DNA from: Amphiscolops sp. MND2022
Lineage: Eukaryota
Direction: 5' to 3'
NCBI GenBank assembly: GCA_964187785.1
Contig: OZ076420.1
Span: 28,892,001-28,956,000, forward strand
DNA length: 64,000 nucleotides
Of this stretch, positions 5,992 through 64,000 are shown one piece after another. Within the stretch, counting starts at the first letter, position 1. Each line of letters begins with the position of its first letter. A model generated the notes under the pieces. It saw only the letters and a program-made list of their open reading frames with translations. It did not search any database and was not told where the DNA came from. A program made the position numbers and the translations under genes.

Positions 5992-5993
5992 TA

Positions 5994-25988: not shown

Positions 25989-28900
25989 AGAAAAAACCCA
26001 CAAACTGCCGTATCAGGAATAGAACACACTGTAACAACGGACAAAAATAAATCCACGCAAAGAAACTAATTGCCAACCCATTGACTTTTCAGCACCTCAT
26101 TTTCATGCCAACAAAGAGCATTAGCACCATTGCAACAATCGTGGAACAGCCAACCTGCTCATTGACTCTAGAAACAACCAGTGGGACAGCCTACTTCCGC
26201 ATACAACAAAAAACAAAACACCGAAGGGCCAGAACAACGAGAGGAGCGCCTATTGGCAGAAAAAGAGAGATCAACAGTTTAACGAGATGCCAAATCACTT
26301 CCCCCTGTTAGATTTAGACTAAAGCATGTCAGAAGAGAAAATTCAACTGTTGTAATAACAATGACGGCAAACAAGTCCACATCAACATTGGGATCGCCAT
26401 AAATTTGGCACCAAGCGCAGGTAAAAACAACGGTTGTTTTGGATCTGAACCAAAAAAAATCTTATGCCGAACAAACTGAGAAACTAGGCAGGGTACCGTA
26501 CTATACCGGTAAAAATGAAAAGAAATTCAATACTAACCATGAATTGTCACAGTAACAGACAAAAAAAAGAAGACAATCAGTTAGCAACCAGAAAACCGTG
26601 CCATACGTAGAGAAAACCCTATCAACCGTAAAATACGATAACACTACATACCAACTGTTTCGTGCGGCCTTAGCCGGGGGAATGTGGGATGTAGAGGTCA
26701 CATGATCTTCAAACGTCTGAGCTAGATCGAACAAGAGGACAGAAAATTGCTAACAAACTTTTAAGACTGTACCATCTATTTATGTTGAGTTGATACTACT
26801 GTTGTTTAGACAAAGTTTAATTGAATGTTAATAAAGTCCATTTGTTTTTACCTGTAAGATCTCGTATCTTGACAAACAGTATCGCCAATTTGAGCCGTCT
26901 CCGGTTTTTTAGTCAGCGCTTTTTCGTAGAAAAACGCAGATTATAGTAGTGACTTTTCTTTTTTTAAGACCAAGGAAGTGACAGATTTTTTAAGCTTTAT
27001 AAGCTGACTTGAACTAACACTAAATGCCACACTACTTCTACTGGCACTTGAGATAGAGGTTACTTAGGCTTTTTTGAGGTCCCCTTCTACATTTTTCGGC
27101 ACTATGCGACTTATCGGAGACCAAAAAAATTTTTAAAAAACTTCGAAAAATGGGCTTTTTCAATATTTTCCTCATGCGGGTACTGTAGAAGAGAATAGTT
27201 GACACTTTCAAGTCCTGTTGCTATTTTTGAGCCGTAGATATGGCGCCGACTTGGGTCGTTCCCGGCTTGTTCATTCATGCGTCGACTAAGACTTACGTCA
27301 ATTGTAGTTCGAAAGTAAATATAGGCCAAAATGCCAGGCCAAGCTGTACAGAGCACAACTTTCTTGACAGGGAACTTAAATGTTTTTAGTCGGCACGTTT
27401 TTAAAGAAAAATTCCCCAACTGTTACTCTGGCAAAGTTTTTTGCAAGATGACAAATTCCAAGGTCCATTTTTTACGATCTATTAGCCTAAGGACGAGCGT
27501 GTACTAACAAGTAGACAAGGGTCCTCTCTTTAAATTTTCCTCACTTTTACTTCACCTGCGAAAAAGAAAAAAGTACAAGGGACGCACCGCCTTCTGGGTT
27601 GTTTGGCACTCTGCTACATTTTGCCGAGAAAAATAGTTAGTTAAAGGATCCCCTTTGATTTTGGCCTGTTTTAATTTTGAAAAAAAAAGAAGAAAGGTCC
27701 CGAAGTGTTTCAGAAATTCAACTCTTGAAAACTCCATTTCTCGAAAAACGTTTAATATTTTCTTATATTTTTCAACATTAGTTATTGAATTTCAGACTTC
27801 AGGACTAGTCAAAGTAAAAAAAAATCCTGACATGAGGCCAGATTCGACCCACTGACCTGTTGCCTGATAGTTGGTGCAACTAAACAACAGCACAACGGAA
27901 AGTAGAAAACCGGTTGAATTCATCAGAACTTTTTGGAGCACCACAATTTGTTACAGAACAAAGCACTTGAATGTTAGCACCTGATTCAATCGGCAACTTT
28001 TTAAATTTTGTTCAAAAGCTGGTCCTCCGTAATATCAAGTGTCTATTTTAGTTAGCACATTTTCCTTTATAGGAAAAATGCCCGACTCTTACTGTGACCC
28101 TTTTTTCTCCAGACGACAGACCTCATACTGATCGGTCCACTTTTTACAGAAACTACTGAAACAACTGAGGCCAAGTCCAGTCAGCAGAAACTTAATGCAA
28201 AGGGTCTCTTTCATTTTGTACTTTTCTAACTTTCAACTTTAGCGTCCCACTTTTAATTTTTTTTGAAAATTATTTTTGTCTCCAAAGGGTCCCCTTTCGA
28301 TTTTATTGAAGTTTCCAATCGTAATATCCGAATTAAAGCACTTTTTACGTTATATCAGAACTATATTGCGTTTTATTAAGGAGGAGGCAGACGTTCGAAA
28401 ACAGGAGTTTTTTATGAAAACGTCCTAAGCATATTTTAAAAACTGCGCTTTTTGAGCCTTAGATATAACGCCGACTTTATAGGTTCCCGTCTTGTTCAAT
28501 AGAGTTTAGGTTTGAAGCATACTCAGCTTGATTGTACATAGACAATCGGTTGCAAGCCTCCAAAGTTCCTCTATAAAACAGAGCACAATATAGGAACCAA
28601 CATTAGGTATTGAGAAGGAATGACAAAGCTGTCCCTTGATTGTTCTTGATTGGGCATATTCCAATTTTGATCCTCATTTTTTTTCGTGGGACTAGTTTCA
28701 ACCCTAAATGGACAAGGAAATTTCCAGGTTCATCCAAAAATCTGGTGCTTAAACTTTAAACCGCATCATCTCCTAAACTACCCAAGTCTGACAAACGATT
28801 TATAGCGCGTTAGATGAAAAACAACCAGGGTTTCAAAACTGACGGCTGGACTGGGGGCTCGCTGTCGCACTTGTTCCGGCCTTTGCGCCAAAACTTTGCA

Positions 28901-31900
28901 CGCCTCGTGTTTCTGACTGCATTACAGAAAAAACCACAAACTGCCGTATCAGGAATAGAACACACTGTAACAACAGACAAAAATAAATCCACGCAAAGAA
29001 ACTAATTTCCAACCATTGACTTTTCAGCACCTCATTGTCATGCCAACGAAGAGAATTAGCACCATTGCAACAATTGTGGAACAGCCAACCTGCTAATTGA
29101 CTCTAGAAACAACCAGTGGGACAGCCTGCTTCTGCATACAACAAAAAACAAAACACCGAAGGGCCAGAACAGCGAGAGGAGCGCCTATTGGCAGAAAAAG
29201 AGAGATCAACAGTTTAACGAGATGCCAAATCACTTCCCCTGTTAGATTTAGACTAAAGAATGTCAGAAGAGAAAATTCAACTGTTGTAATAACAGTGACG
29301 GCAAACAGGTCCACACCAACATTGGGATCGCTATAAATTTGGCACCAAGCGCAGGTAAAAACAACGGTTGTATCGGATCTGAACAAAAAAATATCTTATG
29401 CCGAACAAACTGAGAAACTAGGCAGGGTACCGTACTATACCAGTAAAAATGAAAAGAAATTCAATACTAACCATGAATTGTCACAGTAACAGACAAAAAA
29501 AAACAGAAGACAATCTGTTGGCAACCGGAAAACCGTTCCATACGTAGAGAAAACCCTATCAATCGTAAAATACGATAACACTACATACCAACTGTTTCGT
29601 GCGGCCTTAGCCGGGGGAATGTGGGATGTAGAGGTCACATGATCTTCAAACGTCTGAGCTAGATCGAACAAGAGGACAGAAAATTGCTAACAAACTTTTA
29701 AGACTGTACCATCTAATTATGTTGAGTTGATACTACTGTTTAGACAAAGTTGAATTGAATGGTAATAAAGTCCATTTGTTTTTACCTGTAAGATCTCGTA
29801 TCTTGACAAACAGTATCGCCAATTTGAGCCGTCTCCGGTTTTTTAGTCAGCGCTTTTTCGTAGAAAAACGCAGACTATAGTAGTGACTTTTCTTTTTTTA
29901 AGACCAAGGAAGTGACAGATTTTTTAAGCTTTATAAGCTGACTTGAACTAACACTAAATGCCACACTACTTCTACTGGCACTTGAAATAGGGGTTAATTA
30001 GGCTTTTTTGAGGTCCCCTTCTACATTTTTCGGCACTATGCGACTTATCGGATACCAAAAAAATTTTTTAAAAACTTCGAAAAATGGGCTTTTTCAATAT
30101 TTTCCTCATGCGGGTACTGTAGAAGAGAATAGTTGACACTTTCAAGTCCTGTTGCTATTTTTGAGCCGTAGATATGGCGCCGACTTGGGTCGTTCCCGGC
30201 TTGTTCATTCATGCGTCGACTAAGACTTACGTCAATTGTAGTTCGAAAGTAAATATAGGCCAAAATGCCAGGCCAAGCTGTACAGAGCACAACTTTCTTG
30301 ACAGGGAACTTAAATGTTTTTAGTCGGCACGTTTTTAAAGAAAAATTCCCCAACTGTTACTCTGGCAAAGTTTTTTGCAAGATGACAAATTCCAAGGTCC
30401 ATTTTTTACGATCTATTAGCCTAAGGACGAGCGTGTACTAACAAGTAGACAAGCGTCCTCCCTTTATATTTTCCTCACTTTTACTTCACCTGCGAAAAAG
30501 AAAAAAGTACAAGGGACGCACCGCCTTCTGGGTTGTTTGGCACTCTGCTACATTTTGCCGAGAAAAATAGTTAGTTAAAGGATCCCCTTTGATTTTGGCC
30601 TGTTTTAATTTTGAAAAAAAAAGAAGAAAGGTCCCGAAGTGTTTCAGAAATTCAACTCTTGAAAACTCCATTTCTCGAAAAACGTTTAATATTTTCTTAT
30701 ATTTTTCAACATTAGTTATTGAATTTCAGACTTCAGGACTAGTCAAAGTAAAAAAAATCCTGACATGAGGCCAGATTCGACCCACTGACCTGTTGCCTGA
30801 TAGTTGGTGCAACTAAACAACAGCACAACGGAAAGTAGAAAACCGGTTGAATTCATCAGAACTTCTTGGAGCACCACAATTTGTTACAGAACAAAGCACT
30901 TGAATGTTAGCACCTGATTCAATCGGCAACTTTTTAAATTTTGTTCAAAAGCTGGTCCTCCGTAATATCAAGTGTCTATTTTAGTTAGCACATTTTCCTT
31001 TATAGGAAAAATGCCCGACTCTTACTGTGACCCTTTTTTCTCCAGACGACAGACCTCATACTGATCGGTCCACTTTTTACAGAAACTACTGAAACAACTG
31101 AGGCCAAGTCCAGTCAGCAGAAACTTAATGCAAAGGGTCTCTTTCATTTTGTACTTTTCTAACTTTCAACTTTATCGTCCCACTTTTAATTTTTTTTGAA
31201 AATTATTTTTGTCTCCAAAGGGTCCCCTTTCGATTTTATTGAAGTTTCCAATCGTAATATCCGAATTAAAGCACTTTTTACGTTATATCAGAACTATATT
31301 GCGTTTTATTAAGGAGGAGGCAGACGTTCGAAAACAGGAGTTTTTTATGAAAACGTCCTAAGCATATTTTAAAAACTGCGCTTTTTGAGCCTTAGATATA
31401 ACGCCGACTTTATAGGTTCCCGTCTTGTTCAATAGAGTTTAGGTTTGAAGCATACTCAGCTTGATTGTACATAGACAATCGGTTGCAAGCCTCCAAAGTT
31501 CCTCTATAAAACAGAGCACAATATAGGAACCAACATTAGGTATTGAGAAGGAATGACAAAGCTGTCCCTTGATTGTTCTTGATTGGGCATATTCCAATTT
31601 TGATCCTCATTTTTTTTCGTGGGACTAGTTTCAACCCTAAATGGACAAGGAAATTTCCAGGTTCATCCAAAAATCTGGTGCTTAAACTTTAAACCGCAAT
31701 ATCTCCTAAACTACCCAAGTCTGACAAACGATTTATAGCGCGTTAGATGAAAAACAACCAGGGTTTCAAAACTGACGGCTGGACTGGGGGCTCGCTGTCG
31801 CACTTGTTCCGGCCTTTGCGCCAAAACTTTGCACGCCTCGTGTTTCTGACTGCATTACAGAAAAAACCACAAACTGCCGTATCAGGAATAGAACACACTG

Positions 31901-34790
31901 TAACAACAGACAAAAATAAATCCACGCAAAGAAACTAATTTCCAACCATTGACTTTTCAGCACCTCATTGTCATGCCAACGAAGAGAATTAGCACCATTG
32001 CAACAATTGTGGAACAGCCAACCTGCTAATTGACTCTAGAAACAACCAGTGGGACAGCCTGCTTCTGCATACAACAAAAAAAAAACAAAACACCGAAGGG
32101 CCAGAACAGCGAGAGGAGCGCCTATTGGCAGAAAAAGAGAGATCAACAGTTTAACGAGATGCCAAATCACTTCCCCTGTTAGATTTAGACTAAAGAATGT
32201 CATAAGAGAAAATTCAACTGTTGTAATAACAGTGACGGCAAACAGGTCCACACCAACATTGGGATCGCTATAAATTTGGCACCAAGCGCAGGTAAAAACA
32301 ACGGTTGTATCGGATCTGAACAAAAAAATATCTTATGCCGAACAAACTGAGAAACTAGGCAGGGTACCGTACTATACCAGTAAAAATGAAAAGAAATTCA
32401 ATACTAACCATGAATTGTCACAGTAACAGACAAAAAAAAAACAGAAGACAATCTGTTGGCAACCGGAAAACCGTTCCATACGTAGAGAAAACCCTATCAA
32501 TCGTAAAATACGATAACACTACATACCAACTGTTTCGTGCGGCCTTAGCCGGGGGAATGTGGGATGTAGAGGTCACATGATCTTCAAACGTCTGAGCTAG
32601 ATCGAACAAGAGGACAGAAAATTGCTAACAAACTTTTAAGACTGTACCATCTAATTATGTTGAGTTGATACTACTGTTTAGACAAAGTTGAATTGAATGG
32701 TAATAAAGTCCATTTGTTTTTACCTGTAAGATCTCGTATCTTGACAAACAGTATCGCCAATTTGAGCCGTCTCCGGTTTTTTAGTCAGCGCTTTTTCGTA
32801 GAAAAACGCAGACTATAGTAGTGACTTTTTTTAAGACCAACGAAGTGACAGATTTTATAAGCTTTTTAAGCTGACTTGAACTAACACTAAATGCCACACT
32901 ACTTCTACTGGCACTTAAAATAGGGGTTAATTAGGCTTTTTTGAGGTCCCCTTCTACATTTTTCGGCACTATGCGACTTATCGGATACCAAAAAAAAATT
33001 TTTAAAAACTTCGAAAAATGGGCTTTTTCAATTTTTTCCTCATGCGGGTACTGTAGAAGAGAATAGTTGACACTTTCAAGTCCTGTTGCTATTTTTGAGC
33101 CGTAGATATGGCGCCGACTTGGGTCGTTCCCGGCTTGTTCATTCATGCGTCGACTAAGACTTACGTCAATTGTAGTTCGAAAGTAAATATAGGCCAAAAT
33201 GCCAGGCCAAGCTGTACAGAGCACAATTTTCTTGACAGGGAACTTAAATGCTTTTAGTCGGCACGTTTTTAAAGAAAAATTCCCCAACTGTTACTCTGGC
33301 AAAGTTTTTTGCAAGATGACAAATTCCAAGGTCCATTTTTTACGATCTATTAGCCTAAGGACGAGCGTGTACTAACAAGTAGACAAGGGTCCTCCCTTTA
33401 AATTTTCCTCACTTTTACTTCACCTGCGAAAAAGAAAAAAGTACAAGGGACGCACCGCCTTCTGGGTTGTTTGGCACTCTGCTACATTTTGCCGAGAAAA
33501 ATAGTTAGGTAAAGGATCCCCTTTGATTTTGGCCTGTTTTAACTTTGAAAAAAAAGAAGAAAGGTCCCGAAGTGTTTCAGAAATTCATCTCTTGAAAACT
33601 CCATTTCTCGAAAAACGTTTGATATTTTCTTATAATTTTCAACTTTAGTTATTGAATTTCAGACTTCAGGACTAGTCAAAGTAAAAAAAATCCTGACATG
33701 AGGCCAGATTCGACCCACTGACCTGTTGCCTGATAGTTGGTGCAACTAAACAACAGCACAACGGAAAGTAGAAAACCGGTTGTATTCATCAGAACTTCTT
33801 GGAGCACCACAATTTGTTACAGAACAAAGCACTTGAATGTTAGCACCTGATTCAATCGGCAACTTTTTAAATTTTGTTCAAAAGCTGGTCCTCCGTAATA
33901 TCAAGTGTCCATTTTAGTTAGCACATTTTCCTTTATCGGAAAAATGCCCGACTCTTACTGTGACCCTTTTTTCTCCAGACGACAGACCTTATACTGATCG
34001 GTCCACTTTTTACAGAAACTACTGAAACAAGTGAGGCCAAGTCCAGTCAGCGGAAACTTAATGCAAAGGGTCTCTTTCATTTTTTACTTTTCTAACTTTC
34101 AACTTTAGCGTCCCACTTTCAATTTTTTTTGAAAATTATTTTTGTCTCCAAAGGGTCCCCTTTCGATTTTATGGAAGTCTCCCCTCGTAATATCCGAATT
34201 AAAGCACTTTTTACGTTATAACAGAACTATATTGCGTTTTATTTGGGAGGCGGCAGACGTTCGAAAACAGGAGTTTTTTATGAAAACGTCCTAAGCATAT
34301 TTTAAAAACTGCGCTTTTTGAGCCTTAGATATAACGCCGACTTTAGTGGTTCCCGTCTTGTTCAATAGAGTTTAGGTTTGAAGCATACTCAGCTTGATTG
34401 TACATAGACAATCGGTTGCAAGCCTCCAAAGTTCCTCTATAAAACAGAGCACAATATAGGAACCAACATTAGGTATTGAGAAGGAATGACAAAGCTGTCC
34501 CTTGATTGTTCTTGATTGGGCATATTCCAATTTTGATCCTCATTTTTTTCAAGGGACTAGTTTCAACCCTAAATGGACAAGGAAATTTCCGGATTCATCC
34601 AAAAATCTGGTGCTTAAACTTTAAACCGCAATATCTCCTAAACTACCCAAGTCTGACAAACGATTTATAGCGCGTTCGATGAAAGACAACCAGGGTTTTA
34701 AAAGTGACGGCTGGACTGGGGGCTCGCTGTCGCACTTGTTCCGGCCTTTGCGCCAAAACTTTGCACGCCTCGTGTTTCTGACTGCATTTC
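25989..34790. repeat. Tandem array of three ~2.93-kb units (25989-28925, 28926-31858, 31859-34790)
   Basis: Each unit starts AGAAAAAACC(C)ACAAACTGCCGTATCAGG and ends CGTGTTTCTGACTGCATT(A/T)C. The ORF track repeats with a ~2934 period. AG microhomology occurs at the junctions. Each unit contains two HINE-like repeats and a degenerate coding remnant. Confidence 0.97.
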
Positions 34791-35707
34791 AGCATGTTGA
34801 AAGACTTTTATAACCATTTTGACCCAACATTGAGACCTGTGGGATAAAATGGCCATAAACTAAAACTGAAAAAAAAGGAAAATCTGCGCTTATTCTTTAA
34901 ATTTTTGTGGTCATGTTTGCTTGATTTTGGAGGCAACGTGTCAATATTCCGTAAAAAGGCCTGCAATGCTTTTTAATAATGTCTGAAAATCTTATTCATG
35001 AGTTTCCCTTTCCATACCGTCAGTTTGTTCGTTCAGAAGTTTGCAGAAACTAACTGAGACGAATACATCCCAATTGTCCATTTAGGGTTATACTAGATAA
35101 CCATCAGCACTGAATTATTTTTAACCTTCTCTTCATAACAACAAGGCAGTTGATGAAACCATTTCACGTTAACTTGGTACATGTCTCTACTGTTGGCTGC
35201 TCATGAACTACCCCTGCTTTGCATGAACATCACTCATCAGAAAGAATACCCTCCGAAATTAACAACCAACGCTGTTAGTTACACGACATCAGATATAAGT
35301 GACACTTCGAATAGACAAAAATACAACGCTTATGATGGTAGCTAAACAGCATCATAAAAAACAGTTGGAAAACTGTAAACACTAACCCTTCCAAATACCA
35401 CTCTCAGTTGAAAGTAGTTACATGTGTAAATACTTCAATATTAACTATGGATGACGGGCCTATCCAATGATCTTATCAAGATTCATACCAAAACGGTTTT
35501 ATGGGAATAGCATCGTGTATACCAATATCTTTGTCATATATCGTGTTGTAGTAGTCTCAATTGCATTCAATCATTCATCGCTGTTTGAACATAATACATT
35601 TAACGTTGGCAACACTCCATCATCGCATCTCTATACAAACCATTATTCATTAGTTGACCATAGTCACATTTTGCAACAAAACCTCAATTTTGTAAGTACT
35701 GGTATGA

Positions 35708-40079: not shown

Positions 40080-40494
40080 CTGACAGAAGCAGACAGAGAC
40101 AGCACTGACGTAACCTTGAAGATATTGTTGATGTTCTGGAAAGCACTTTCTGTTCTCAGAGAAAACCGGTTGCTAGAACAGATAACGACGTTGAGAACAT
40201 TGTTGAAAATTTGAACGGAAACAGAAGCTGAAACTCTATGAACAAACTCGGATTAAAAACTTTCTAACTTTCAGAAATTTTCATTGCTCGTTTATTCATA
40301 GGAAAGCTATTTCACTCGTTCTACCGTTGGAACATTTTAGTATCGAAGCAATAAAATACCTTGCCCAAAAGGAAGACTATTTCGAAACAACATTTACAAA
40401 TTTTCTATGCAGGGTCTCTGAATCTTTTTCTCTTTTTTCGGAAAATTGATAAAACTTCCATAATTCATTTTCATGGTCAAAAGTTCGGTTTTTG

Positions 40495-41227
40495 TGTAAC
40501 GGAAGCCTGTGGTACAACGAGTTTTCAGAAAAATCGACCAAAAAAACGTTCAAATCCGACGTGGCAAATTGAGCATGTTTTGACCAAAGTACCTGTCAAA
40601 AATCAGTCCAGAAGACGAGGCAAGCCGCCCGCGGACACGACCGAACGGGAACACGGAGTGTAGAAGCCCATGCGCTAAAAAAACTCATGAATAGACTCTC
40701 CGGTTTTTACCGATTTTCAGCATTATGCTACCCAAAGTAGCAAGAACCGGGAAAATGCGTCTTTTCGCTAATTATCCCTTTTTGATGCTTGGAGCCCATG
40801 CGCCCCAGCTTGTAGCTGTGTGGTTGGCCATATTCATGCTTATTTTGATGTGTTTCTACTGTTTTTAGCTAGCCCATGCGCTAGTTTTCGCAGTTTAGAT
40901 CTTAGTACCCATTTTAGACCTTATTCACATGTCACCCTGGAATTTCACCCTGGAATGGAAATTTACACTGTTTATCCTTGGCATTGTTTTTAAAGGCTGT
41001 CTAGACGGTGGTTATGAAGAGAAAAAGCGTAATGCCGTTTATTGTGAGCAGTAACAGACTGGAACAGGCCGGAGAGCGTCCCTAGAGACGGTTCCCCCCT
41101 CCTCGGGACCGGCTTCCGTAGGAGGACAAAATGGGCTGGCGTAATGGTGATTGGTCCCGAATCTTAATACATGGCATCAATTCCTCCACCCTGTGTAGCG
41201 AACAAACGCTAAGCGCTTTTCATTACA
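40495..41227 (+). repeat. 5' LTR (733 bp)
   Basis: TG...CA termini. Direct repeat of 47401-48149. Confidence 0.9.
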
Positions 41228-41243
41228 TAGGAACATCATTTTT

Positions 41244-41263
41244 TGGCGATCACAGAGGGATCG
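41244..41263 (+). promoter_or_regulatory. Candidate primer-binding site complementary to tRNA-Arg 3' end
   Basis: TGGCGATCACAGAGGGATCG resembles the reverse complement of recalled eukaryotic tRNA-Arg(UCG) 3' ends (TGGCGACCACGAAGGGACTCG). It lies 16 nt downstream of the LTR, farther than usual. Confidence 0.55.
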
Positions 41264-44200: not shown

Positions 44201-45069
44201 GTACACTTGATAGAACTGAGTTTGACTGTGCTCAGAGTCACGTTTGGGCCAAAATCCCGAAAAACCGTCGGAAAAACGAAAACATAAAAGCTTAGTACTC
44301 CCTCTGTACGGAAGGCAGAGACCAAAAGCCTTCATTTTCAACCAAGGGGACCTGGTAGGTTTTCCTGGGTGCAAACGAGGCAAATCCCAAGACTCAAAAA
44401 CATTGACGGCAGGGGTCATAAATTTGACTCAACTGAAACTTTGAAATTTGGTTCTGATAAAGTCTCAATCGGAGGTTTTAATTGATTGCGACGCACTTCC
44501 GACTGACTTTTTTCATCGAGAACGTCTCAACAAGGCGTTACGCCGTGAGCCCAAACAGGGGTTTGAATTTCCTGAAACTACCCTGAGGGATCCAACTTAA
44601 CCAAAATCACGAGATTTTGAGAGGAATCACCTCCTAGAGACAAATATTTAACCAAGTTGCCCAAGTGTGAACCCTTTTTGACCACTCTGGTGCCCTAATT
44701 CGGAGTTTTTCGGCTATGCCAGGTAAAAAAAACACCGATTAACAGGTCACTTCTGCAGAGAACACTTTTGGGTGATTGCAACACACCCAAATTGCTTGAG
44801 GTTGAGAGGTCAATAGACAGCTCGACTGTTTGTTTCGTGTACACTATCCGACACGACAGCATCATTGTGCTCGAACGCACAATTTCTCAGCCTTCGAACT
44901 CATCTTGACTGTGACCCTGAGACTAATTTTGGGTCAAAAAGAGTTCTAGTCAGGCAGTTTGAACTTATCTGAAGCTGGAATGAAATTGTGGAAGGTCATA
45001 GACAGCTTCTGTTCCTTTTTCAAGGGGTAAGAGGGTGTCAGTGCAGCACTACCAATCGCTGAACCTGTT

Positions 45070-46299
45070 TTGAAAACAGAATGTGAATCTCAAATGGTAG
45101 ATGAACATGACCGATCGACGAAGTTAGAGGATCTGAACTTGGAAGATTGGCCTTTGGAGGATAGTTTCAAACTTGTCTCCGATTTTCTAGTTTCAATGCC
45201 ATTTAACTCTCAGGATACCGAGCCGGAGATGAGCATAAAGACTTCCAGTCCTAGTTCAGTATCGTCGTCGAAAGGATTCTCTCTCCATGAAACCAGTATT
45301 CAGATTTATCAGAAACAGGACCAACGGTTAGAGGCCCTGGAGCAGCAGATGGATGATTTATCAATCTTGTTGACACAAAGCGATCTACGCAGAGAGAAAT
45401 TGCTAGCTCGAGCGCAAGCGCAATTGCAGTCGATAAGTGTAGCAGTACACTTCGAAAGTGCTACTATCAATATTCCAAACGACTCCGAAGGAGAACCAAT
45501 GACACCGTCTACAAAAGATATGGGGGTAGACCCAATGTTTTTAGACACGACAACCATGGGCATTGCTGATACGTTACCCATTTATCATCTTGCTGATTAT
45601 GGATTGCTCGAGGGCAATCCCTGCACAACAGATTAAGAAGATGAACTGATAACAACCTTTCCCTCCACTTCATCATTGAAGGGGGAGAGGGTACCCTCAA
45701 CTCCAAATTCTTGCTCTGCAACAAATTGCGGAACGCGGAATCTATCTGCCAATGCCGTGTTGGAACCTGAAACAGCACCAACACCAAACCTTTTTGAAAA
45801 CCACATATCGACAAGTCCAATAAATTCGGTTTGCAACTCTCACTTTCCTGGAACAAAGTCCCCATTATCAATTTCGAAGTTGCTGCTGGATTTGTTGAAA
45901 GAATCTATTGTGCCACATTCTGCCAAACATGGTCTGCAGAATATTATTTTGGCAAACCCACCAATCTTCGTCAGAGGCTTGCCTGGTGGTTCAGCTAAAA
46001 CCCGACCAGCTGGACACAGACGTGGTCGACCACCGCGCACTTCCGGTGAACACTCATTGCAAACAGTGCTCCTATCTTTTTATGACGGACGTCGTCATGG
46101 TCGTCCACCACGCTCGGCTGCGGAAAACCTTCTACTGTCATGGTCACACCAACCGAAGGGACATAGGCGTGGCCGCCCGCCGAATAACTATCCAAGATTG
46201 TGTTCAAGACCCAATTTATCGTTCTGCATTTTGGGTATTGGGCATTTTTTTTGTCTAATTCCTGCTATCCTCTTATCAAGGAGGGTGCTCAACGATTAA
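45070..46299 (+). pseudogene. Element-encoded coiled-coil + 3x AT-hook-like protein, one internal stop
   Basis: ORFs 45070-45636 and 45676-46299 are in the same frame, separated only by TAA at 45634-45636. Heptad region QKQDQRLEALEQQMDDLSILL. Motifs HRRGRPPR, RRHGRPPR and HRRGRPPN. The frame continues upstream past a TAA at 45028. Confidence 0.8.
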
Positions 46300-47400: not shown

Positions 47401-48149
47401 TGTAACGGAAGCCTGTGGTACAACGAGTTTTCAGAAAAATCGACCAAAAATTCGTTCAAATCTGACGTGGCAAATTGAGCATGTTTTGGCCAAAGTACCT
47501 GTCAAAAATCAGTTCAGAAGACGAAGCAAGCCGCCCGCTTACACGACCGAACGGGAACACGGAGTTTAGAAGCCCATGCGCTAAAAAAACTCATAAATAG
47601 ACTCTTTTTGAGGTGCTAACTCCGGTTTTTACCGATTTTAAGCATTATGCTACCCAAAGTAGCAAGAACCGGGAAAATGCGTCTTTTCGCCTAATTATCC
47701 TTTTTTGGTGCTTGGAGCCCATGCGCCCCAGCTTGTAGCTGTGTGGTTGGACATATTCGTGCTTATTTTGATGTGTTTCTACTGTTTTTAGCTAGCCCAT
47801 GTGCTAGTTTTCGCAGTTTAGATTTTAGTACCCATTTTAGACCTTATTCACATGTCACCCTGGACTTTCACCCTGGAATGGAAATTTACACTGTTTATCC
47901 TTGGCATTGTTTTTAAAGGCTGTCTAGACGGTGGTTATGAAGAGAAAAAGCATAATGCCCGTTATTCTCAGCAGTAACAGACTGGAACAGGCCGGAGAGC
48001 GTCCCTAGAGACGGTTCCCCCTCCTCGGGACCGGCTTCCTTAGGAGGACAAAATGGGCTGGCGTTATGGTGATTGGTCCCGAATCTTAATCCATGGCATC
48101 AATTCCTCCACCCTGTGTAGCGAACAAACGCTAAGCGCTTTTCATTACA
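47401..48149 (+). repeat. 3' LTR (749 bp) preceded by polypurine tract
   Basis: GGGGAGTGGA|TGTAAC...CATTACA. Carries ~16 bp extra relative to the 5' LTR. Confidence 0.9.
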
Positions 48150-48572
48150 TTGTTTCTGTTCCAGCCTATTCACGTTTTGGTGATTTTTCTCCCAGAAAAG
48201 AGTTAACAACGGTGAAAACACTGAGTAATCCAAGTAATTCATTTGTGATCACCATGTTTTCCATCACATCCCCACCGGTAGCAATGACACATTTTCATTT
48301 TGCGATGGCTATGGGTGGACCACCGGTGGGCTAGTAACGCAAACAATGCAAAAACATTGAGGCGAATCTGTAGTCCATTTGTTCAACATTCTAAAAGTTT
48401 ACCCATCAATCATCTGCGATTGACATTTGTTTGTTTTGACTAAGATCTATTTGCTTTACAACAATGCCTACCGATGGCCATCGGTAGAAAAAGTATCGAA
48501 AGTGGCAGATGGTTTTCCACCGATAGCCATTAATGGTTCATAGATGGACATTTATAAAATTGCCCTGGAATG

Positions 48573-55321: not shown

Positions 55322-58300
55322 CTCCCGGTTTTATAGACAAAACTGGGGATATCTAATATACAACAATCTCAGTTCATTTGAGCTGTACATGTACGGTTAA
55401 CACTTATTTATTTCAGATTACATGACTTCCAAGATTCATTTTGGGTTCAATCTTGCTTGTCTATTCCCAATGGTTCACTTTCTTCAACTTGCATTACGAC
55501 GTCAATTCCGTATCGTTGGTCTTCTTTTTCGGGGCTCTTTTTCCACTTGCAGGAGTCCACTCCATTGAGGCCTTTATCGCCTTCTTCTTTTCAGTTTGTT
55601 TTCTTCAGCCTTTTCCCGGGGTTTTTCCATTTTCTTGAGGTTATGCGTTTTCTCCGATTCTGTCTTCTTTTTCTCTTCCGCCATATTCTTTTCATCTGGC
55701 TTCTTTTTACTTCCTGTTTCGGCGGTTTTGCATTCCTCCTCTATACTGGAGTTTTCCCGGCTTGCTCCGCGGTATCCTTTGCGAGGTCCCTTTTTGACAG
55801 TACTATTTCCTTTTTACTTTTTTTTGGTCTGAAGGTTATAGTGTGTGCCGTTTCTTTCAGCACCTTCCCCGCCTTTCTCTTGTACTATCCTTCTAACTTT
55901 GACCCCTTTGTCCTCGCGCACTAATATCGTTGAGTCTATCTCTTCCTCGAAATCGGAAGGACTGAATGTCAACTTTGGCTCTGTTTCTGAAACATTTTTG
56001 ATTCGCCCAATTACATTACTCTTTACCGTAGGTACTTCGGTTTTCGTACTCATAGTTTTTCGATCGATGATTTCCCGTCCGCTTCTTCGCCCGTTCGCAA
56101 CGCATACAAAATTTCTGATAAACTTGACGTCTCGCGTTTTAAAACAATGTTTTTGTTTGTTCTTAGGCGTTCGTTAATCGTTCGGATCAATCTTTCAATT
56201 TTGCCATTTCCGCGGTAATCGCGTACCGGGCAGGTTATGTGTTTTATCTGAAATTGGCTACAAAATGATTTAAATTTTTCACTGGTAAATACTGTTCCCG
56301 GCTCCATTCTAATCTGTTTTGGAATTCCGTAATGGGCTATGTAGTTTTTTAAAATTCAATAACATTCTTCGTCGACGGTTTGTGTAAAAATAGGTTGTCC
56401 GGCCAAGCTGAATATTTAACAATTGCCACTAGCATGTATTTTTTTCCGTGTTCCGCATTTTGGAAAGGACCTGCAAAGTCCAATCCAATTTCCTCATTTG
56501 GTTCTGCCGATTTTGGTATTTCTCCAAATTGATTTTGTCTTTTCAAAGGTTTAACGTTGTTACCTGCTACTGAGCATTGTTCGCAACACTTTGCAGTATT
56601 TATTACCTCTCTCTGTGTTTTAGGCCACCAGATATCCGAAATGTATCTCAGCATTGTATCACGGCCCGGGTGACCGTAATACACCGAGCTCATGATTGAG
56701 GCGCGTAAATTAGCCAAAATAACGAGTCTCTCGTCCATATAAAAAAATCCCTTATCGTCGATGCTAAGACAGTTGAATTTCTCTCTCCATGGTGCCAGTA
56801 ATCTCGAGTTTTTAGCTCCTTCCCTTGATTTTACTAGGGCTATAACTTTTTGTAACATTTTATCGGCTTGATAATTCGGCGGAAGGTAAGAGTCGTTCAG
56901 TTTTTTAATAACTTCAGAAGTGGCAATTTGCGTAAATTTACTCATTTTGTCACGTTTACCCATTTTAACGTTCTTATTGGCAGCAATGATTTTCCGTTCG
57001 CGTTCTCTTACTTTACATTCCAGCGATTCGATTGGTTGATTACCTTCATGCTTTCTCGCCATATTTGACTGTCGCTCGCTCTGTTTACTTTCCACTTTAA
57101 GTACCGACTCCGGCGCGCGCCGCAGTTTCATCGATTTTGTCAAATCCGCCGGTGTTATCTCTTTCTCTGAAGTAGCTTTAATTTTGGTAATGGCGTTTAC
57201 TGTAAACCAATCATTCCATAGTTTTTTGCCTTCAACGTATTTCCTTTTATTTCACTTGGGTGTCTCGATAAGTAGTCGGCAAAACCTAATACTCTACCTG
57301 GTGCATGTGTGATTTCGAACTCGTATGGCAATAATCCGTCAACCCATCTCGGTAATCTACTCGAGAATGTTGTATTCCCTCTATTCGGTTTCAATACTGA
57401 TGCTAACGCTTTATGATCGGAAATTATTTGAAATTTTTCTCCGTACACGTAATGCTCGATTGCCCATACGACAGCTAATAGCTGTAGCTCATTGACTGAG
57501 TATTTAGCTTCAAATTCCGTTAAAAATTTTGACGCAAATGACACTGGTTTCCATTCTTGGTTTTCTTGCTGTTATTGGAGCACCGCCCCCAGTCCTTTTA
57601 CACTAGCGTCACATATGATTCTTATTTTTCTACACCGTTTAAAATGTGTCAATTCCGTAATTCTTCTATTTTCTTGGTAAACTTTTAAAATAGTTTTTTC
57701 ATGTTCTTGGGTCCATTTCCACTCTGCATCTTTCTTTAAAATTGATCTGAATGGTGCACAATTATTAGGTAACTCTGGGACATTTTTATTTAGTTGATTG
57801 ACTGCTCCCACGAATGATCTCAATTCTTTCAAGTTACCCGGTCTTAGCCTTTCGGTAATTACTTTTACTTGGCCATTTACGGGGGTAATGCCTTCTCCTG
57901 ACAATTCGTACCCCACCCATTCTATTTTTGTACACGCGATTTGACATTTATCCGCTCTCAATTGCAAACTGGCTTTATCTAACAATTTTAAAACTTCCCG
58001 GACTTTTTGCATATGTACACTTTTTTCACCCTTTGTAACAATTAAAATATCATTTTTATACACAAATGTACAGTCCATATTTACAAGTGTCAAGTCCATC
58101 TTTTCTGGAATTCGGTTGGCATTATTGTTAGGCCATATTGACCTGTCACGAATCTGTATGTACCTGTTGATTTTCCACCGATTATTTGAAATTTACAGTG
58201 CTTTGCCGTACTTTCGTCTGATGGATCTTGTCCATATGCGTACTTCATATCAACGGATGAATATAATACTTCGCTTTCTTTTTCGTCAATTTTTTCAGCA

Positions 58301-60040
58301 ATCATGTCCAATAAATTTTCATGATTTGGCATTTCATACTTGTCCTTTGCAATTGAGTTGTTCAACGCGCGTGCATCTAAGGCTAGTTTTACCGACCGGT
58401 CCTTTCTTACAGTTATCACAACAGGTTGAATGAAAAGGTCGTCTTTAATGTTATTTACTTTTTGAATATGTCCCTGTTCTAGTAGATTTTGAATTTCTTT
58501 ATCTACTTGCTCTTGCAGCTGTATCGGAACCCTCCGCCCCTTTTGCTGGGTTACGCGCGTGCCGTCATTCATTTCTATTTCAATTTTATAATTTTTTACT
58601 CTCCCGCGTCTCTTGAATACATTTGGAAACTCTTCAACTAATTGCTTCTCGTCGGGACTTAGCTTATTCTCAGATTCTGCGCTTTCGCAGAAAATGCTAT
58701 TTACTGAATTCTCACCTTCTTTGATTGGTTGTTCAATGCTATACTTTAGTGCTGTAAGCCAATCACGGCCGACAATTGACTACGATCCTTTCTTTGCAAC
58801 CAGCACTCTCGCCTTGGACATTCTTGTTTTTCCCACCTGCACACTCACAAACATGTATCCCAGTTTTGGCAGTGGGCGTCTATTGAATTCCACATATTGA
58901 AATCTTTCATGGTCGATCATTTCTCTGACCACGACCCAGTGCTTTCTGATGATTTTCTTCAGTTCATCAATTGCAAATACTGAGACTGGCGATCCCGTGT
59001 AGATAATTGCCTTGAATTCCTTACCGCACATCAGGCCTTCCATCATGAAGGGTTTCGCACCGGTTCCTTCTATCTGCAATACCATTTCATCGTGTTTCAG
59101 TTCATCTGAGTTTTTTGATACGTAGTTGATTCTTGACTGCTCTCTCCGCCTATTTTGCTTTCTTTGTTTCATTTGTTTTCTTCTCTCTGGATATTTTTGG
59201 TTGCAGCATTTTTCTATATGGCCCATGATGTCACAGTACTCGCATTTATGGTTCGTGGCTGGGCATCTCTTTATGTGATCTACGGTGAAATTTCCTGCAC
59301 CGCAACGGAAGCATTCTCTTATTTGCTCTATCCATCGCATATACCCGCTCGCTCTTTACTGCCACTTTCGAGCTTTCTGCCACTCCCACGCCCATTGACT
59401 TTTGTCTCTTGATGCCTTCTTCGTAGGAAATGGCATATTGGATAGCATCTTGCGGATTATCGTTGGGCTCTACAGAGAGTTTCTCCTGGACCTTCTTATT
59501 ATTCATGTTCAGGATAAACACATCATGAACTAGGGTTTGGGTAATTTCTCTCAATTCGCATCTGGACGCGAGACCATTTAACGAATGCCAGAATTGCATC
59601 AGGTTGTTGTTTTCTTGATTAAAATTTGTGCCTGTCCAAAGTACTATTGCGGGCAACATGGAAGCAGTTTACGCATCTCTCTATCATCTGTTGTGCCCGT
59701 AGAGTCCAAACTGAAACTTCTGGGTATTTATCTTTAATCATCTTTCTCGCGAGTTCTCCCACCGAGAGAAATAACCAGGTTACCAGTTTCTTCTCTGCCG
59801 CTTCTTTTGGCATATCCCTGATTAGTGCCTTTACCCTTGGGTTATCAGCATCCCCGGTTCTCGTCAGTTCCTCGACAGATATCGAAAATTTGGCCATGAC
59901 AGCCACAGTGAAGAGGTCGAACCATTTTTCCCATTCCATTGCTGGGGATTTCGTGGGATCTGACCAGAAAAGAGGTAACCCAGGCAGTAACGACGGATGA
60001 TTGTCTCTCTGGGGAGACGCTGTATTTGCTCGCAGCGCTA

Positions 60041-60244: not shown

Positions 60245-60961
60245 GACTCTGAAGAGGAGGAATATCACAATATCACAGAACCAAAATATACTGTTTTTTT
60301 CAACTGTTTGGGCCAAGTTCTGAAGTCCAGGTCGAGATCCAATCTTATAGAGGTTACGTTTGTGTTTCTGAAAAGTCAAATTTTTAAAAAATCTGTAATT
60401 GGCCATTCAGCCGCGTGTTTTATGTTTTTATTTTACGGTTCTCGATGGCTTTGAATACCCACAAAGTTTAAGTATGTAGCTACTTACCACTCGTTTGAAT
60501 ATGGAAAGATGATGTTTTTTTTAAATTGTTTTGAAATAACACGAAAGATGTCAAAATTTTTCATTCCGTTTTAAAGTTTTTGAATTCATTTTTAGGTATG
60601 AGTTTTCACAAAGATCGAGAACAAACAAATTAGCTACTTAGCACATACTTGTTCAGACAAATGACTTGTTCAGACAAATGACAAGATTTTCTGCAAGTTT
60701 GGATGTATCAGCTTCGCTCGAGCCTTAGGAATATGTTGCTGTTGCTAGTTCGGGCCGAAAATATTCGTCTTAGCTGCAAGACAAAGTCACTAAAGCATTG
60801 TCGACGAAATTCAATTGATAAGATACTTTTTGGCATCAATCTAGCTGATCCTTTGGGAAAGCCTTTATGACTCAATGGCACATACTTGTTCAGCAACAGT
60901 TTTTCATATATACCTGTTTATAAAATGATACAATGAAAAAAAATTGTCATTAAAGATGTTA

Positions 60962-63900
60962 TGTAACGGCAAGCAGTTATCGGTCGCTTAACACGTCAAC
61001 AGAGGTGGAGGAACCTGCAGGAATGGGTGATTCGCTCGGGACAGGCGCCCATCGCCACAGATCCATTTTGCCTCCAGGGGTGAAATACGTCCCGGGGCCG
61101 CGGGTGCTTCGACGAATACTGTCCAACCGGTCCTAGTCTTTGATTGCTAATAGTAACGGGCATCTTTCTGACTCTCTAAAGACCACCGCTTAACTAGCAT
61201 ATAAAAACAATGCCAAGAATAAGGTAAATTTCCAGTTCCAGGGTGACATGTGAATAAGATCTAAAATTGGGGAATAAGATCTAAACTAGCGCTAACGCTA
61301 CTGAATACAGCCAAAATCACTGAAAATACATGAAAACAGGCACGAATATGGCAAACCACACAGCTAAAAAGCTGGGGCGCAGGGGCTCCAAGCACCAAAC
61401 AAGGACAATTAGGCGAAAAGACTCATTTTTACGGTTTCCGCTACATAAGGTAGCATAATGCTGAAAATCGATAAAACCGGTGTTAGCACCTCAAAAAGAG
61501 TCTATTTTCGGATGTTCTTGCCGTCTCTGGCTTCTGTCATGGCGGCGCGCCCGTGTTTTTGCTCGTTCTTGCTCTTTGTTGTCGAAGTACCTGCCAATTT
61601 CGTGGAAACAGCGAAAAGAGCAATCACATGCTCAGTGCCACGTCACACATCGGATTAGAATTTTTGACAAAATTTCTCAACATGTCAAAGTTGCAAAATC
61701 GGTTGATATTGCTGTACCAGAGCTTGCCGTTACATCACTCCCCGGGCTTTATGCATGACGTCCCTGTCATGCGGAGAAGCTGGCATTGAATACATCGCCA
61801 CATCATGAGTGCAATCCACGGGGGTCTCAAACTGGTGATGTTGCAACGGTCCAGTGGCACTGTCATCTTTTGCTGATTGGGCAACCATGAGGTCTTGCTT
61901 CTTGCCATCCAGAGAACCTGCATCGTCCACAAACTGTTGAAACAGAGCTACCTCGAGAGCTAGAAAACCAGTACTCAAAAATGCACCTTGAAATTGATCA
62001 AATCCAAAATTCCATATATCAATCAAAAAAGCACCAGTTTTTTAGCACGAGTTTTCAGTTTTCTGCAAAAGTCTGAATAGGATACTGCTAGCACTTTGGT
62101 TTTTGGACGTCTAAAATTTCTTTTACGGAGCGCTCACGCTCCAAAGCGCACGTGGTTCTCAGCAAAACATCTTTTCCACGGCAATTAAATTTCAGTATGA
62201 AGCACAGTTAAAAGTTCTTTTCGCTAAAACTTCTTTTCAGCAGTAAAACCACTGTTTAAAAGGAAGACAAGCTGTTTCTTTGATACTTTTTTTACAGTTC
62301 GGCTTGGTTTGGGCAACACGCACTGATGTGCAGCTCCATACCTGTATAGAGTTCAGTAGCATCTGTCAAGGAGCGCATCAGAAGCAAACTACGAACTGCT
62401 CGTAAGAGTAAGCACTGGAGTAAAGCAGACAAAGGTAGATCAAATCCTGCCATTTGCAGATCAGGAGCGCGCGCGCTACTTATTTTTCCGGATATCACGT
62501 TGGAATCTGGAGGAAACTTTTGGAAATCTTGGAAAAGAAAAACAAAAATAGCACCTTTCGGGCGTAGCAATACATGTAGAGTTTTTGGGTTATTTATTGA
62601 ATTAACAGAAGTATTTGATTTCAAACATCTCAAATAAAACTAGAACAAAAATGTCGCGACGTACGTTTACATGACTACTAAAATTACGAAACAAAGTTGC
62701 AGAAGAAACTGCTCCAACAAGAACATCACGCTGCAAGGTATCCATTACTAAACGTAGTGATATCCTCCAGGCGTTATCCAATTGAGTTGATGAGTGTAGG
62801 GGTGTTTGTCTTCAACTGAGGCTCCCCGGGCCTTAGTTGACTCCCCGGGCCTTAGTTGTTGAGCACCCTCTTTCACATGATGATAGTGAGGAATGGACAA
62901 AATTGAATGCCTGACATAAAAATGCAGCAGGACAAATTAAGCGTTGACGACACCTCCTCCCCCTTTGAAAAGAAGTGGAGTGTGGTTTGGACTGGATAGA
63001 CATCACCATCCAATAGCAGCATGACGTGCAACAAGCATGAAGCATCAGGAAATCCGATAGAGAAAACTGTGGAGACTGGGTCTGTCTCAAGACTGGAATA
63101 GTTGTTCGGAGGACGGCCACGCCTATGTCCCTTCGGTCGAAGCGACCATGGTAAAGCTGGGCGTGGTGGACGGCCACGGCGACGTCCATCATAAAGGGAC
63201 AACAGAACTTTTTGCCATGAGTGCTCAAAGTCTGTGCGCGGTGGTCGACCACGTCTATGACCAGTTGGTCGAGTTTTAGCTGAACCACCAGGCAACCAAT
63301 TGATGAAGACTGGCGGGTCCACCTGAATAAAATCCTGTAGCCCACGTTTAGCAGAATGTGGCTCCAAGGAGTCTTTCAGCAAATTCGGTAGCAACTTCGT
63401 AGTTGATATTAGGGACTTTGTTCCAGGGAAGTGAGAGTTGCTTACAGAATCTTGCGATAAGGAAGTGGAGGGTGAGATTGATATTCGTTCATTCTTCGTA
63501 TCACTTGAGTAGAGGTTGCGCTCGCGCAACCCATTATCACCGGCGTGATATTCAGGCAAAGTGTCAGTAATACCTATAGTTGTAGTGTCCAAAGATATTG
63601 GGTCCACCCCCATGTCTTTTGTTAGCGGTGTCAATGGTTCTGATTTGACGTCGTTTGAAACATTGATCTCGGCATTTCTGAGGTGTGCCTGCACTTCTGC
63701 ATTTATCGACTGCATTTGTGCTAGCACTCGTGCTAACAATTTCTCCATACGTATCTCACTTTGTACCAACGAGATTGATATTTCACCCATCTGTTGCTCC
63801 AGGGCCTCTAATTGTTGATCCTGTTTCTGATAAAACTGAATACTGGCTTCATGGAGAGAAGATCTTTTAGACGACGATACTAAACTAGGACTGGGAGTCC

Positions 63901-64000
63901 TTATGCTCCTCTCCGGCTCGGTATCCTGAGAGTTAGATGGCATTGAGTCTAGAAAATTGGAGACAGGTTTGAAACTATCCTCCAAAGGCCAATCTTTCAA
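60962..64000 (-). mobile_element. Second, divergent member of the AT-hook LTR family (3' part; runs off the window)
   Basis: 3' LTR 61734-60962 (773 bp, TGTAACGGCAAGC...GCTTGCCGTTACA) preceded by CCCGGGGAGTGA. The 3' UTR and ORF are colinear with 45150-48149. Confidence 0.9.
62873..64000 (-). CDS. Intact (at least 375 aa) coiled-coil + 3x AT-hook-like ORF of the LTR element
   Basis: Stop-free to the window edge. DWPLEDSFK, QKQDQQLEALEQQM, TKDMGVDP, NSHFPGTKS, LPGGSAKTRP, HRRGRPP, RRRGRPP and HRRGRPPNNY are shared with 45070-46299. Confidence 0.82.
   Translation of the reverse strand: MKDWPLEDSFKPVSNFLDSMPSNSQDTEPERSIRTPSPSLVSSSKRSSLHEASIQFYQKQDQQLEALEQQMGEISISLVQSEIRMEKLLARVLAQMQSINAEVQAHLRNAEINVSNDVKSEPLTPLTKDMGVDPISLDTTTIGITDTLPEYHAGDNGLRERNLYSSDTKNERISISPSTSLSQDSVSNSHFPGTKSLISTTKLLPNLLKDSLEPHSAKRGLQDFIQVDPPVFINWLPGGSAKTRPTGHRRGRPPRTDFEHSWQKVLLSLYDGRRRGRPPRPALPWSLRPKGHRRGRPPNNYSSLETDPVSTVFSIGFPDASCLLHVMLLLDGDVYPVQTTLHFFSKGEEVSSTLNLSCCIFMSGIQFCPFLTIIM

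Follow-up and report, generated by a model that had tools for sequence, protein, structure and literature searches.

A selected open reading frame in a defective Gypsy element of Amphiscolops joins a capsid-less Gag N-terminus to a triple-RGRPP stretch and may act in cis as a nucleic-acid tether

We analyzed a 64,000-nucleotide (nt) stretch of DNA from Amphiscolops sp. MND2022 (contig OZ076420.1 of assembly GCA_964187785.1, positions 28,892,001 to 28,956,000 of the forward strand; hereafter, the window), which holds two copies of a non-autonomous long terminal repeat (LTR) retrotransposon in opposite orientations (Table 1). Copy 2, whose 5′ end lies beyond the window, is an 8754-bp element with 773-bp LTRs that begin with TG, end with CA and are 100% identical to each other, so this copy is very young; copy 1 spans 7655 bp, and its LTRs are 94% identical. 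The sole long open reading frame (ORF) of the copy 2 element encodes 428 amino acids (aa) and sits at the gag start position, behind a leader common to these elements and the autonomous helper described below, rather than as an env-like or additional ORF 3′ of pol. Capsid, protease, reverse transcriptase and integrase were not found in copy 2, and a tblastn search with the helper gag-pol over the whole element was significant only at the N-terminal region.

The family is large. A 20-mer taken from the third RGRPP motif of the ORF has 453 exact occurrences in the 1.07-Gb genome, giving at least 453 copies; this 20-mer is present in 57 of the 68 copies sampled, and exact matching favors young ones. 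A 20-mer from the helper integrase, carried by 14 of 15 helper stretches, occurs 229 times, and by these marker counts defective copies outnumber helpers roughly 2:1. Three sequence groups were sampled, A (with copy 2), B (with copy 1) and C, with N-terminal DNA 77–89% identical. The primer binding site (PBS) pattern occurs 1,878 times in the genome, a figure not usable as a family copy number because 16 of 20 further PBS loci came from sister autonomous families. Sites of the tRNA-Arg(TCG) type number 256 by pattern, mostly in a tandem array at C9:57.54–57.58 Mb with a spacing of ~173 bp. This array encodes the primer tRNA of the clade, and some of its genes carry a TCA anticodon and are called SeC by ARAGORN.

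Table 1. Coordinates of the two element copies and their parts in the window (LTR, long terminal repeat; ORF, open reading frame; PBS, primer binding site; TSD, target-site duplication; pLDDT, predicted local distance difference test).
Feature	Position	Strand	Remarks
5′ LTR, copy 1 (subfamily B)	40495..41227	+	TSD TTG precedes at 40492–40494
PBS, copy 1	41244..41261	+	pairs with the 3′ terminus of genomic tRNA-Arg(TCG), one mismatch; 16 nt past the LTR
Broken ORF, copy 1 (subfamily B)	44980..46299	+	in-frame TAA at 45028–45030 and 45634–45636
3′ LTR, copy 1	47401..48149	+	followed by TSD TTG (48150–48152)
TSD, copy 2	60959..60961	-	TAA, 3 bp
3′ LTR, copy 2	60962..61734	-	773 bp, TG...CA; 5′ LTR outside the window
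Polypurine-tract-like site before 3′ LTR, copy 2	61735..61749	-	identical to that of the young helper
Codons 54–428 and stop of the 428-aa ORF, copy 2 (subfamily A)	62873..64000	-	ATG 159 nt outside the window
Gag pre-capsid N-terminal region, aa 54–227	63479..64000	-	30–40% identity to the region right before the capsid of old helpers
Predicted helical/coiled-coil stretch, aa 96–166	63662..63874	-	sole part with pLDDT 60–80; dN/dS 0.67, not significant
Linker, aa 231–270	63350..63469	-	not in old helpers; young helpers have it as far as the aa 270 junction; dN/dS 0.89
Basic stretch, aa 300–355, three RGRPP motifs	63095..63262	-	motif starts 63253, 63178, 63121; non-autonomous copies only; deep-branch dN/dS 0.33
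Tail, aa ~361–428	62873..63079	-	read-through into sequence like the helper 3′ untranslated region; frame not conserved; dN/dS 0.82, not significant

As the original prediction stated from the window alone, the frame of copy 2 runs for 375 codons without a stop up to the window edge. Extension past position 64,000, which that prediction proposed, adds 83 open codons, with the start codon (MKRWK...) at the window-equivalent position 64159, and brings in the 5′ LTR. The identity to copy 1 (45150–46200) estimated by eye at roughly 60–65% is 65% when computed (213 of 327 aligned residues), and the blocks DWPLEDSFK, TKDMGVDP, NSHFPGTKS and LPGGSAKTRP are present in both copies. Other details needed amendment. 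The second RGRP motif reads RHGRPP in copy 1, and only the other two stand in both copies; the insertion after PSTS in copy 1, put at 28–30 aa, is 47 aa in the alignment. This insertion, a 2-aa gap and a 5-aa insertion before the tail keep the frame, but the tails after motif 3 are out of register, and the frame of copy 1 is itself broken by two TAA codons, the second of which falls within the interval 45150–46200. Because 65% protein identity at ~80% DNA identity would be close to the neutral expectation, the identity seen by eye is not evidence of selection; the codon tests given below are. The ORF showed no domain above cut-off in Pfam and no usable match in the Atlas, and a homologue search among 1.84 billion representatives gave 169 matches, of which the 12 examined are family members or helper N-termini; no named relative came up in these searches.

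Three longer homologues (P0122–P0124) link the ORF to Gag: the ~275 N-terminal aa that they have in common with it continue in frame into a Gag capsid region, and a Pfam protease is found in P0122 and P0123. A genome search with the Gag region of these proteins located the helper, a 15–16-kb element with TG...CA LTRs, a tRNA-Arg primer site, a polypurine tract and a single ORF of ~3,050 or ~2,770 aa. Its PBS and polypurine tract are those of copy 2, and its LTRs are 98–99% identical to those of copy 2; LTRs of subfamily A and of young helpers interleave, with up to 99.6% identity. The pol domains follow the order protease, reverse transcriptase, RNase H, integrase (Pfam gag-asp_proteas, RVT_1, RT_RNaseH, Integrase_H2C2, rve), which places the helper in Ty3/Gypsy. 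Upstream of the protease, the capsid matches Retrotrans_gag/Ty3_capsid clusters in the Atlas (0.92–0.95); Pfam and PDB sequence searches with this region were without match. Directly before the capsid, old helpers carry a 230-aa region that is 30–40% identical to the first half of the ORF, and this homology ends at aa ~227, just short of the capsid. Sister Gypsy families carry longer versions of the region with the same short motifs (by eye). Since both old helpers and sister families have homologues, aa 1–227 is, on this sequence evidence, the clade-wide pre-capsid region of Gag. The ORF is consequently neither the "orphan" of the original prediction nor cargo: its first half is helper Gag sequence at its native position.

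In the helper ORF, the integrase is followed by a tail rich in RGRP motifs, then by a CxxC cluster and by ~450 conserved aa (dN/dS about 0.2), the end of which weakly resembles the TARG1/OARD1 macrodomain (E=1.2). The 2,770-aa class lacks aa 1–253 and is young and intact; it was considered as a spliced copy, but its junction is not GT-AG and is read as a deletion. At C1:34.03–34.11 Mb helper copies lie head-to-tail with ~14-kb spacing, adjoining one defective copy. The sister families measure 18–20 kb and have the tRNA-Arg primer site in common; their pre-capsid regions reach ~580 aa, and downstream of pol they carry several additional kb. BEL/Pao elements, a metazoan group whose abundance in the genome fits an animal source, were rejected as helpers: 20 intact ones have different LTRs, different primer sites and, where resolved, longer target-site duplications (TSDs).

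The second half of the ORF has a different distribution. Searches with blastn, tblastx and tblastn located no source of aa 231–360 in 15 helper and 15 sister-family stretches, and young helpers hold only aa 231–270. The basic stretch at aa 300–355 (15 K/R vs 3 D/E) contains three RGRPP motifs that are exact in 53, 51 and 57 of the 68 sampled copies, with codons that differ among the three. AT-hooks and related RGRP motifs are nucleic-acid-binding motifs with an RGRP core; the stretch resembles them in its threefold core and basic surroundings and differs in its RGRPP(R/N) flanks. RGRP motifs also occur in the integrase tails of the clade, but support for descent from such a tail does not extend past the motif: with the motif masked, similarity scores lie in the shuffle range, and nothing else is in common. 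The last ~65 codons match the 3′ untranslated region (UTR) of the helper, the frame shifts between copies, and the position of the tail stop varies. A purine-rich motif followed by GT, similar to a junction of polypurine tract and LTR, recurs at the ORF start, in mid-ORF (group B) and in the 3′ UTR (window positions 45020–45040, 45670–45690 and 62950–62975), and these recurrences are possibly relics of older LTR boundaries.

Selection on the ORF was assessed in 68 non-autonomous copies, obtained from 90 loci found by three protein searches after removal of 10 duplicates and of 12 loci without colinear cover. Codons 1–365 were fitted with a codon model that allows for transition bias and separates three classes of branches; dN/dS was 0.57 on deep branches (n=13; p=4e-7), 1.03 on shallow branches and 0.97 on terminal branches; other branch-length thresholds gave deep-branch values of 0.47–0.60. 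As controls, the five other frames gave 0.84–1.52 and the leader 0.98–1.08. The two window copies alone yield 0.60, and a counting method yields 0.45–0.53 when copy 2 is compared with five B copies, and 0.59–1.10 within A; a two-class model that pools all internal branches is weaker (0.74 for aa 1–230, 0.57 for aa 271–365). Stops and indels point the same way as the deep branches. The 32 stops fall in 28 columns, none is found in more than two of the 68 copies, and ~27 would be expected on deep branches; 9 of 12 shared indels in the ORF are in frame vs 5 of 27 outside it and 18 of 57 private ones, counts that depend on the alignment. Purifying selection on the branches between subfamilies, as the original prediction had it, is thus supported by the codon alignment and dN/dS it called for, the deep-branch value being below 1. 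The contrast of deep-branch values (0.57, and 0.33 in the RGRPP stretch) with 0.97 on terminal branches indicates that selection acts on master lineages and that copies decay after insertion.

The constraint is concentrated in the RGRPP stretch. Deep-branch dN/dS is 0.33 for aa 300–355 (p=7e-6) and 0.51 for aa 167–230 (p=0.02); it is 0.80 for aa 1–95, 0.67 for aa 96–166 (p=0.14), 0.89 for aa 231–270 and 0.62 for aa 271–299, none of these significant. Benchmarks from old vs young helpers are 0.15–0.17 for capsid, 0.05–0.07 for reverse transcriptase, 0.12–0.14 for integrase and 0.47–0.63 for disordered linkers, so that the ORF is under moderate constraint, like that of the disordered linkers and far below that of capsid, reverse transcriptase and integrase. 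AlphaFold2 predicts helices at aa 3–15, 96–133 and 138–166 and no confident structure elsewhere; a homodimer prediction for aa 92–172 scored 0.02.

The ORF and its surroundings have different histories. Midpoint-rooted FastTree phylogenies of the N-terminal DNA unite groups A, B and C in one clade that is ~60% identical to old helpers. In the LTR, leader and 3′ UTR, group A is instead interspersed among young helpers, and B falls with old helpers in the first leader region. Because the ORF clade and the flank groupings disagree, the ORF would be an old cassette whose flanks have been renewed by recombination. Codons 1–270 of the young 3,050-aa helpers are nested inside group A (bootstrap 100, 58-sequence clade), and in these helpers they are fused, together with the 231–270 linker, ahead of an internally shortened native N-terminus; on the simplest reading, young helpers appear to have recaptured codons 1–270 from the defective lineage. 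In the reverse chimeras P0101 and P0118, the short N-terminus of the helper stands in frame with the RGRPP half. We also read the ORF region of a position-ordered sample, the first 24 motif matches on C1: the N-terminus is complete and in frame in 12, four have in-frame N-terminal deletions (three of one class) that keep an ATG at least 230 codons upstream, and eight have shorter open frames. An amplified clade with a broken ORF was not seen in either the 68-copy or the 24-copy sample. By these comparisons, what stays constant is the RGRPP stretch, kept in frame, and the N-terminal half can be exchanged.

We regard as very probable the descriptive part of this account, namely the anatomy of the element, its lack of capsid and pol, the LTRs, PBS and polypurine tract it has in common with the helper, the Gag homology of aa 1–227, and purifying selection that is strongest in the RGRPP stretch. 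Beyond this, we infer that the ORF is translated and that its product serves the element. The defective element likely borrows the capsid and enzymes of the helper; its ORF would be translated behind the 4.8-kb leader by the same route, whatever its kind, as the helper gag-pol; the RGRPP stretch is predicted to grip nucleic acid; and the protein, acting in cis as a tether, would favor its own RNA or cDNA at packaging or integration. Cross-mobilization, translation, nucleic-acid binding and cis action have close to an even chance of being right, perhaps a little under; that the ORF is a capsid-less Gypsy Gag N-terminus joined to a triple-RGRPP stretch that likely serves as a cis-acting nucleic-acid tether in a helper-dependent element is a reading to which we give an even chance. 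Three observations favor a tether acting in cis: constraint is highest in the RGRPP stretch, this stretch stays in frame where the N-terminus has been lost or exchanged, and amplification of broken versions was not seen. The recurrence of rearranged in-frame N-termini (the deleted class in three of 24 copies; P0101 and P0118) supports cis action.

Several observations weigh against this reading. The constraint is moderate, four of the ORF partitions are individually not significant, and a high synonymous rate in the RGRPP stretch (scale 1.9) gives part of its low ratio. The 68 copies are the best-scoring protein matches and hence biased to intact ones, and a single tree was used though recombination is evident. 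The leader before the ORF contains 23 upstream ATGs, and at least one complete-looking copy (L290) has lost most of the ORF. In the protein, the ORF gives no Pfam AT-hook match at E<=0.1, a further difference from AT-hooks, the whole is mostly disordered as predicted (mean pLDDT 42), and amplified variants without much of the helical region argue against coiled-coil docking on helper Gag.

Translation itself might be what is selected, with an open frame protecting or routing the RNA, through decay avoidance or ribosome-coupled delivery to assembly sites, and amino-acid constraint secondary. The lack of shared stops, the in-frame shared indels, an N-terminal half that is freely deleted or swapped with the frame kept, and the several partitions whose dN/dS does not differ from 1 would all fit, and translation is reportedly, according to the title of Saito et al. 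2008, the determinant for IAP IΔ1. We nevertheless consider this unlikely: the dN/dS of 0.33 and the retention of motifs through different codons at aa 300–355 argue for selection on the peptide, and the frame and stop position of the tail vary freely. A constraint inherited from elsewhere, having arisen in the gag or integrase tail of an extinct or unsampled autonomous lineage whose sequence the defective elements only carry, seems improbable. It would draw on the Gag-derived first half of the ORF, the aa 1–270 held in frame by young helpers, the frequent exchange between helper and defective elements and the RGRP motifs of integrase tails. However, no frame longer than 505 aa occurs among the family matches listed (110, 150 and 150), helper gag-pol past aa 400 is missing from 60 of 60 ORF loci, and 78 further, partly overlapping loci have none except for one unrelated reverse transcriptase match at 23%; moreover, the RGRPP stretch was not found in the 15 helper or 15 sister-family stretches, integrase-tail similarity lies in the shuffle range after motif masking, and the ORFs of A, B and C are one clade apart from old helpers.

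Action in trans, whether the protein aids the helper as an accessory factor or limits it as a dominant-negative Gag decoy, is distinctly improbable, since broken copies could amplify if the product acted purely in trans, amplification that the sample did not show, and the protein has no capsid to contribute. The apparent capture of aa 1–270 by young helpers suggests that this region is useful in the particle, but the 2,770-aa class without aa 1–253 is also young and intact; two other points in favor of trans action are the ~2:1 excess of defective copies and the wheat element Quinta, proposed in the account of that family to give Gag in trans (PMC11302176). That no protein matters, and that cis-element constraint on RNA or DNA or a mutational artefact such as CpG decay explains the pattern, is scarcely credible: conservation in the non-coding 3′ region does equal that of non-synonymous sites (0.17–0.20 vs dN of 0.19–0.23), but synonymous sites are the fastest class, the ratio is low in the true frame only, and under the same model terminal branches and leader are both at ~1, so that the frame controls largely refute it.

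The clade is further set apart by its target sites. Among 56 stretches examined, a 3-bp TSD was found in 34 of 37 resolved elements, one of the misses being a tandem junction; matches at 4 or 5 bp were absent, and a single element, lying in a GTT repeat, gave a 6-bp match as well. The 18–20-kb sister families gave a 3-bp TSD in 11 of 11 resolved elements (15 examined), one of which also matched at 5 bp in an AT repeat. The whole Gypsy clade, comprising defective copies, helpers and sister families, therefore makes a 3-bp TSD, and so lacks the 4–6 bp duplication typical of LTR retrotransposons; its Gypsy class does not rest on TSD length. That usual length is used by detectors, and where their settings are described the minimum is 4 bp (PMC2253517), so finders with such a minimum would miss or mis-bound elements of this kind. 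A 3-bp duplication implies an unusual integrase stagger. A literature search found no precedent for a 3-bp TSD in Gypsy, which is weak evidence, as most subscription journals and Repbase were outside its coverage.

The window also contains other repeats. A broken BEL/Pao element (DUF1759, Peptidase_A17) lies at 5969–10345 on the forward strand, and fragments of reverse transcriptase, RNase H and integrase from another Gypsy-type element lie at 56349–59355 on the reverse strand, with a 167-bp direct repeat (55116 and 60038) close by. At 25992–34792, a 2,933-bp unit is repeated three times in tandem (97–100% identical) and has a 62-bp motif in common with repeats at 16.6–19.9 kb.

Set beside known systems, the ORF is genuine, derived from Gag and under moderate selection; it belongs to a non-autonomous partner of a Gypsy element, and a function can be given to it by inference. 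Among such partners, TR-GAG and Quinta-type elements keep Gag, and LARDs are large and non-coding. The element is not a LARD, given its 428-aa ORF under purifying selection, and unlike Quinta and plant TR-GAG, described as retaining the Gag domain proper, its ORF stops just before the capsid and cannot supply particles. It otherwise resembles the wheat pair RLG_Quinta and RLG_Cereba: by the criteria given for that non-autonomous Gypsy partner, PBS and LTR ends are those of the helper and an own reverse transcriptase or integrase was not found in the element, and, as reported for RLG_Quinta, an old, divergent gag-derived ORF with an unknown domain sits between flanks homogenized by recombination (PMC11302176). 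The swapped center, helper-like flanks, recombination with the helper and numerical excess over it recall bovine ERVK[2-1-LTR] D-type elements, ETn/MusD and RecKoRV, but the D-type elements are described there without intact ORFs (PMC10924933), whereas the ORF here is under purifying selection.

Non-autonomous LTR elements are usually seen as passive cis-sequences, or as Gag donors if gag is kept; here selection falls on a short basic peptide specific to the defective lineage and not on capsid. The closest parallel in this respect is mouse IAP IΔ1, a non-autonomous deletion derivative whose residual gag-derived ORF, a fusion protein, is reported to function in cis while a helper is needed in trans (PMC6466679, PMC10924933). 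IAP IΔ1, as described, is a gag-pol fusion in a betaretrovirus-like endogenous retrovirus (ERV), whereas ours is a Gypsy element whose C-terminal part has not been traced to pol, only the RGRP motif being common with integrase tails and masked scores falling in the shuffle range. Mammalian MaLR elements (THE1/MST/MLT1) are likewise high-copy, pol-less LTR elements with one gag-related ORF, of ~460 aa in the available description (PMC11359688); they are ERV-L-related and old, whereas here young helpers coexist with defective copies whose LTRs are 99–100% identical, and the helper has apparently recaptured part of the ORF. Such recapture would be gene flow from parasite to helper, an unexpected direction. 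We entertain tentatively, as possible though doubtful, the fuller history in which a parasite built an accessory protein from the front of Gag and a new triple-RGRPP tether through which its RNA or cDNA gains entry to helper particles, the first 270 codons were then recaptured by the helper, and both belong to an undescribed clade of giant (15–20 kb) Gypsy elements with a 3-bp TSD. Why defective retroelements keep an ORF, a question raised by MaLR, IAP IΔ1 and the unknown domain of Quinta, thus becomes approachable in a living family.

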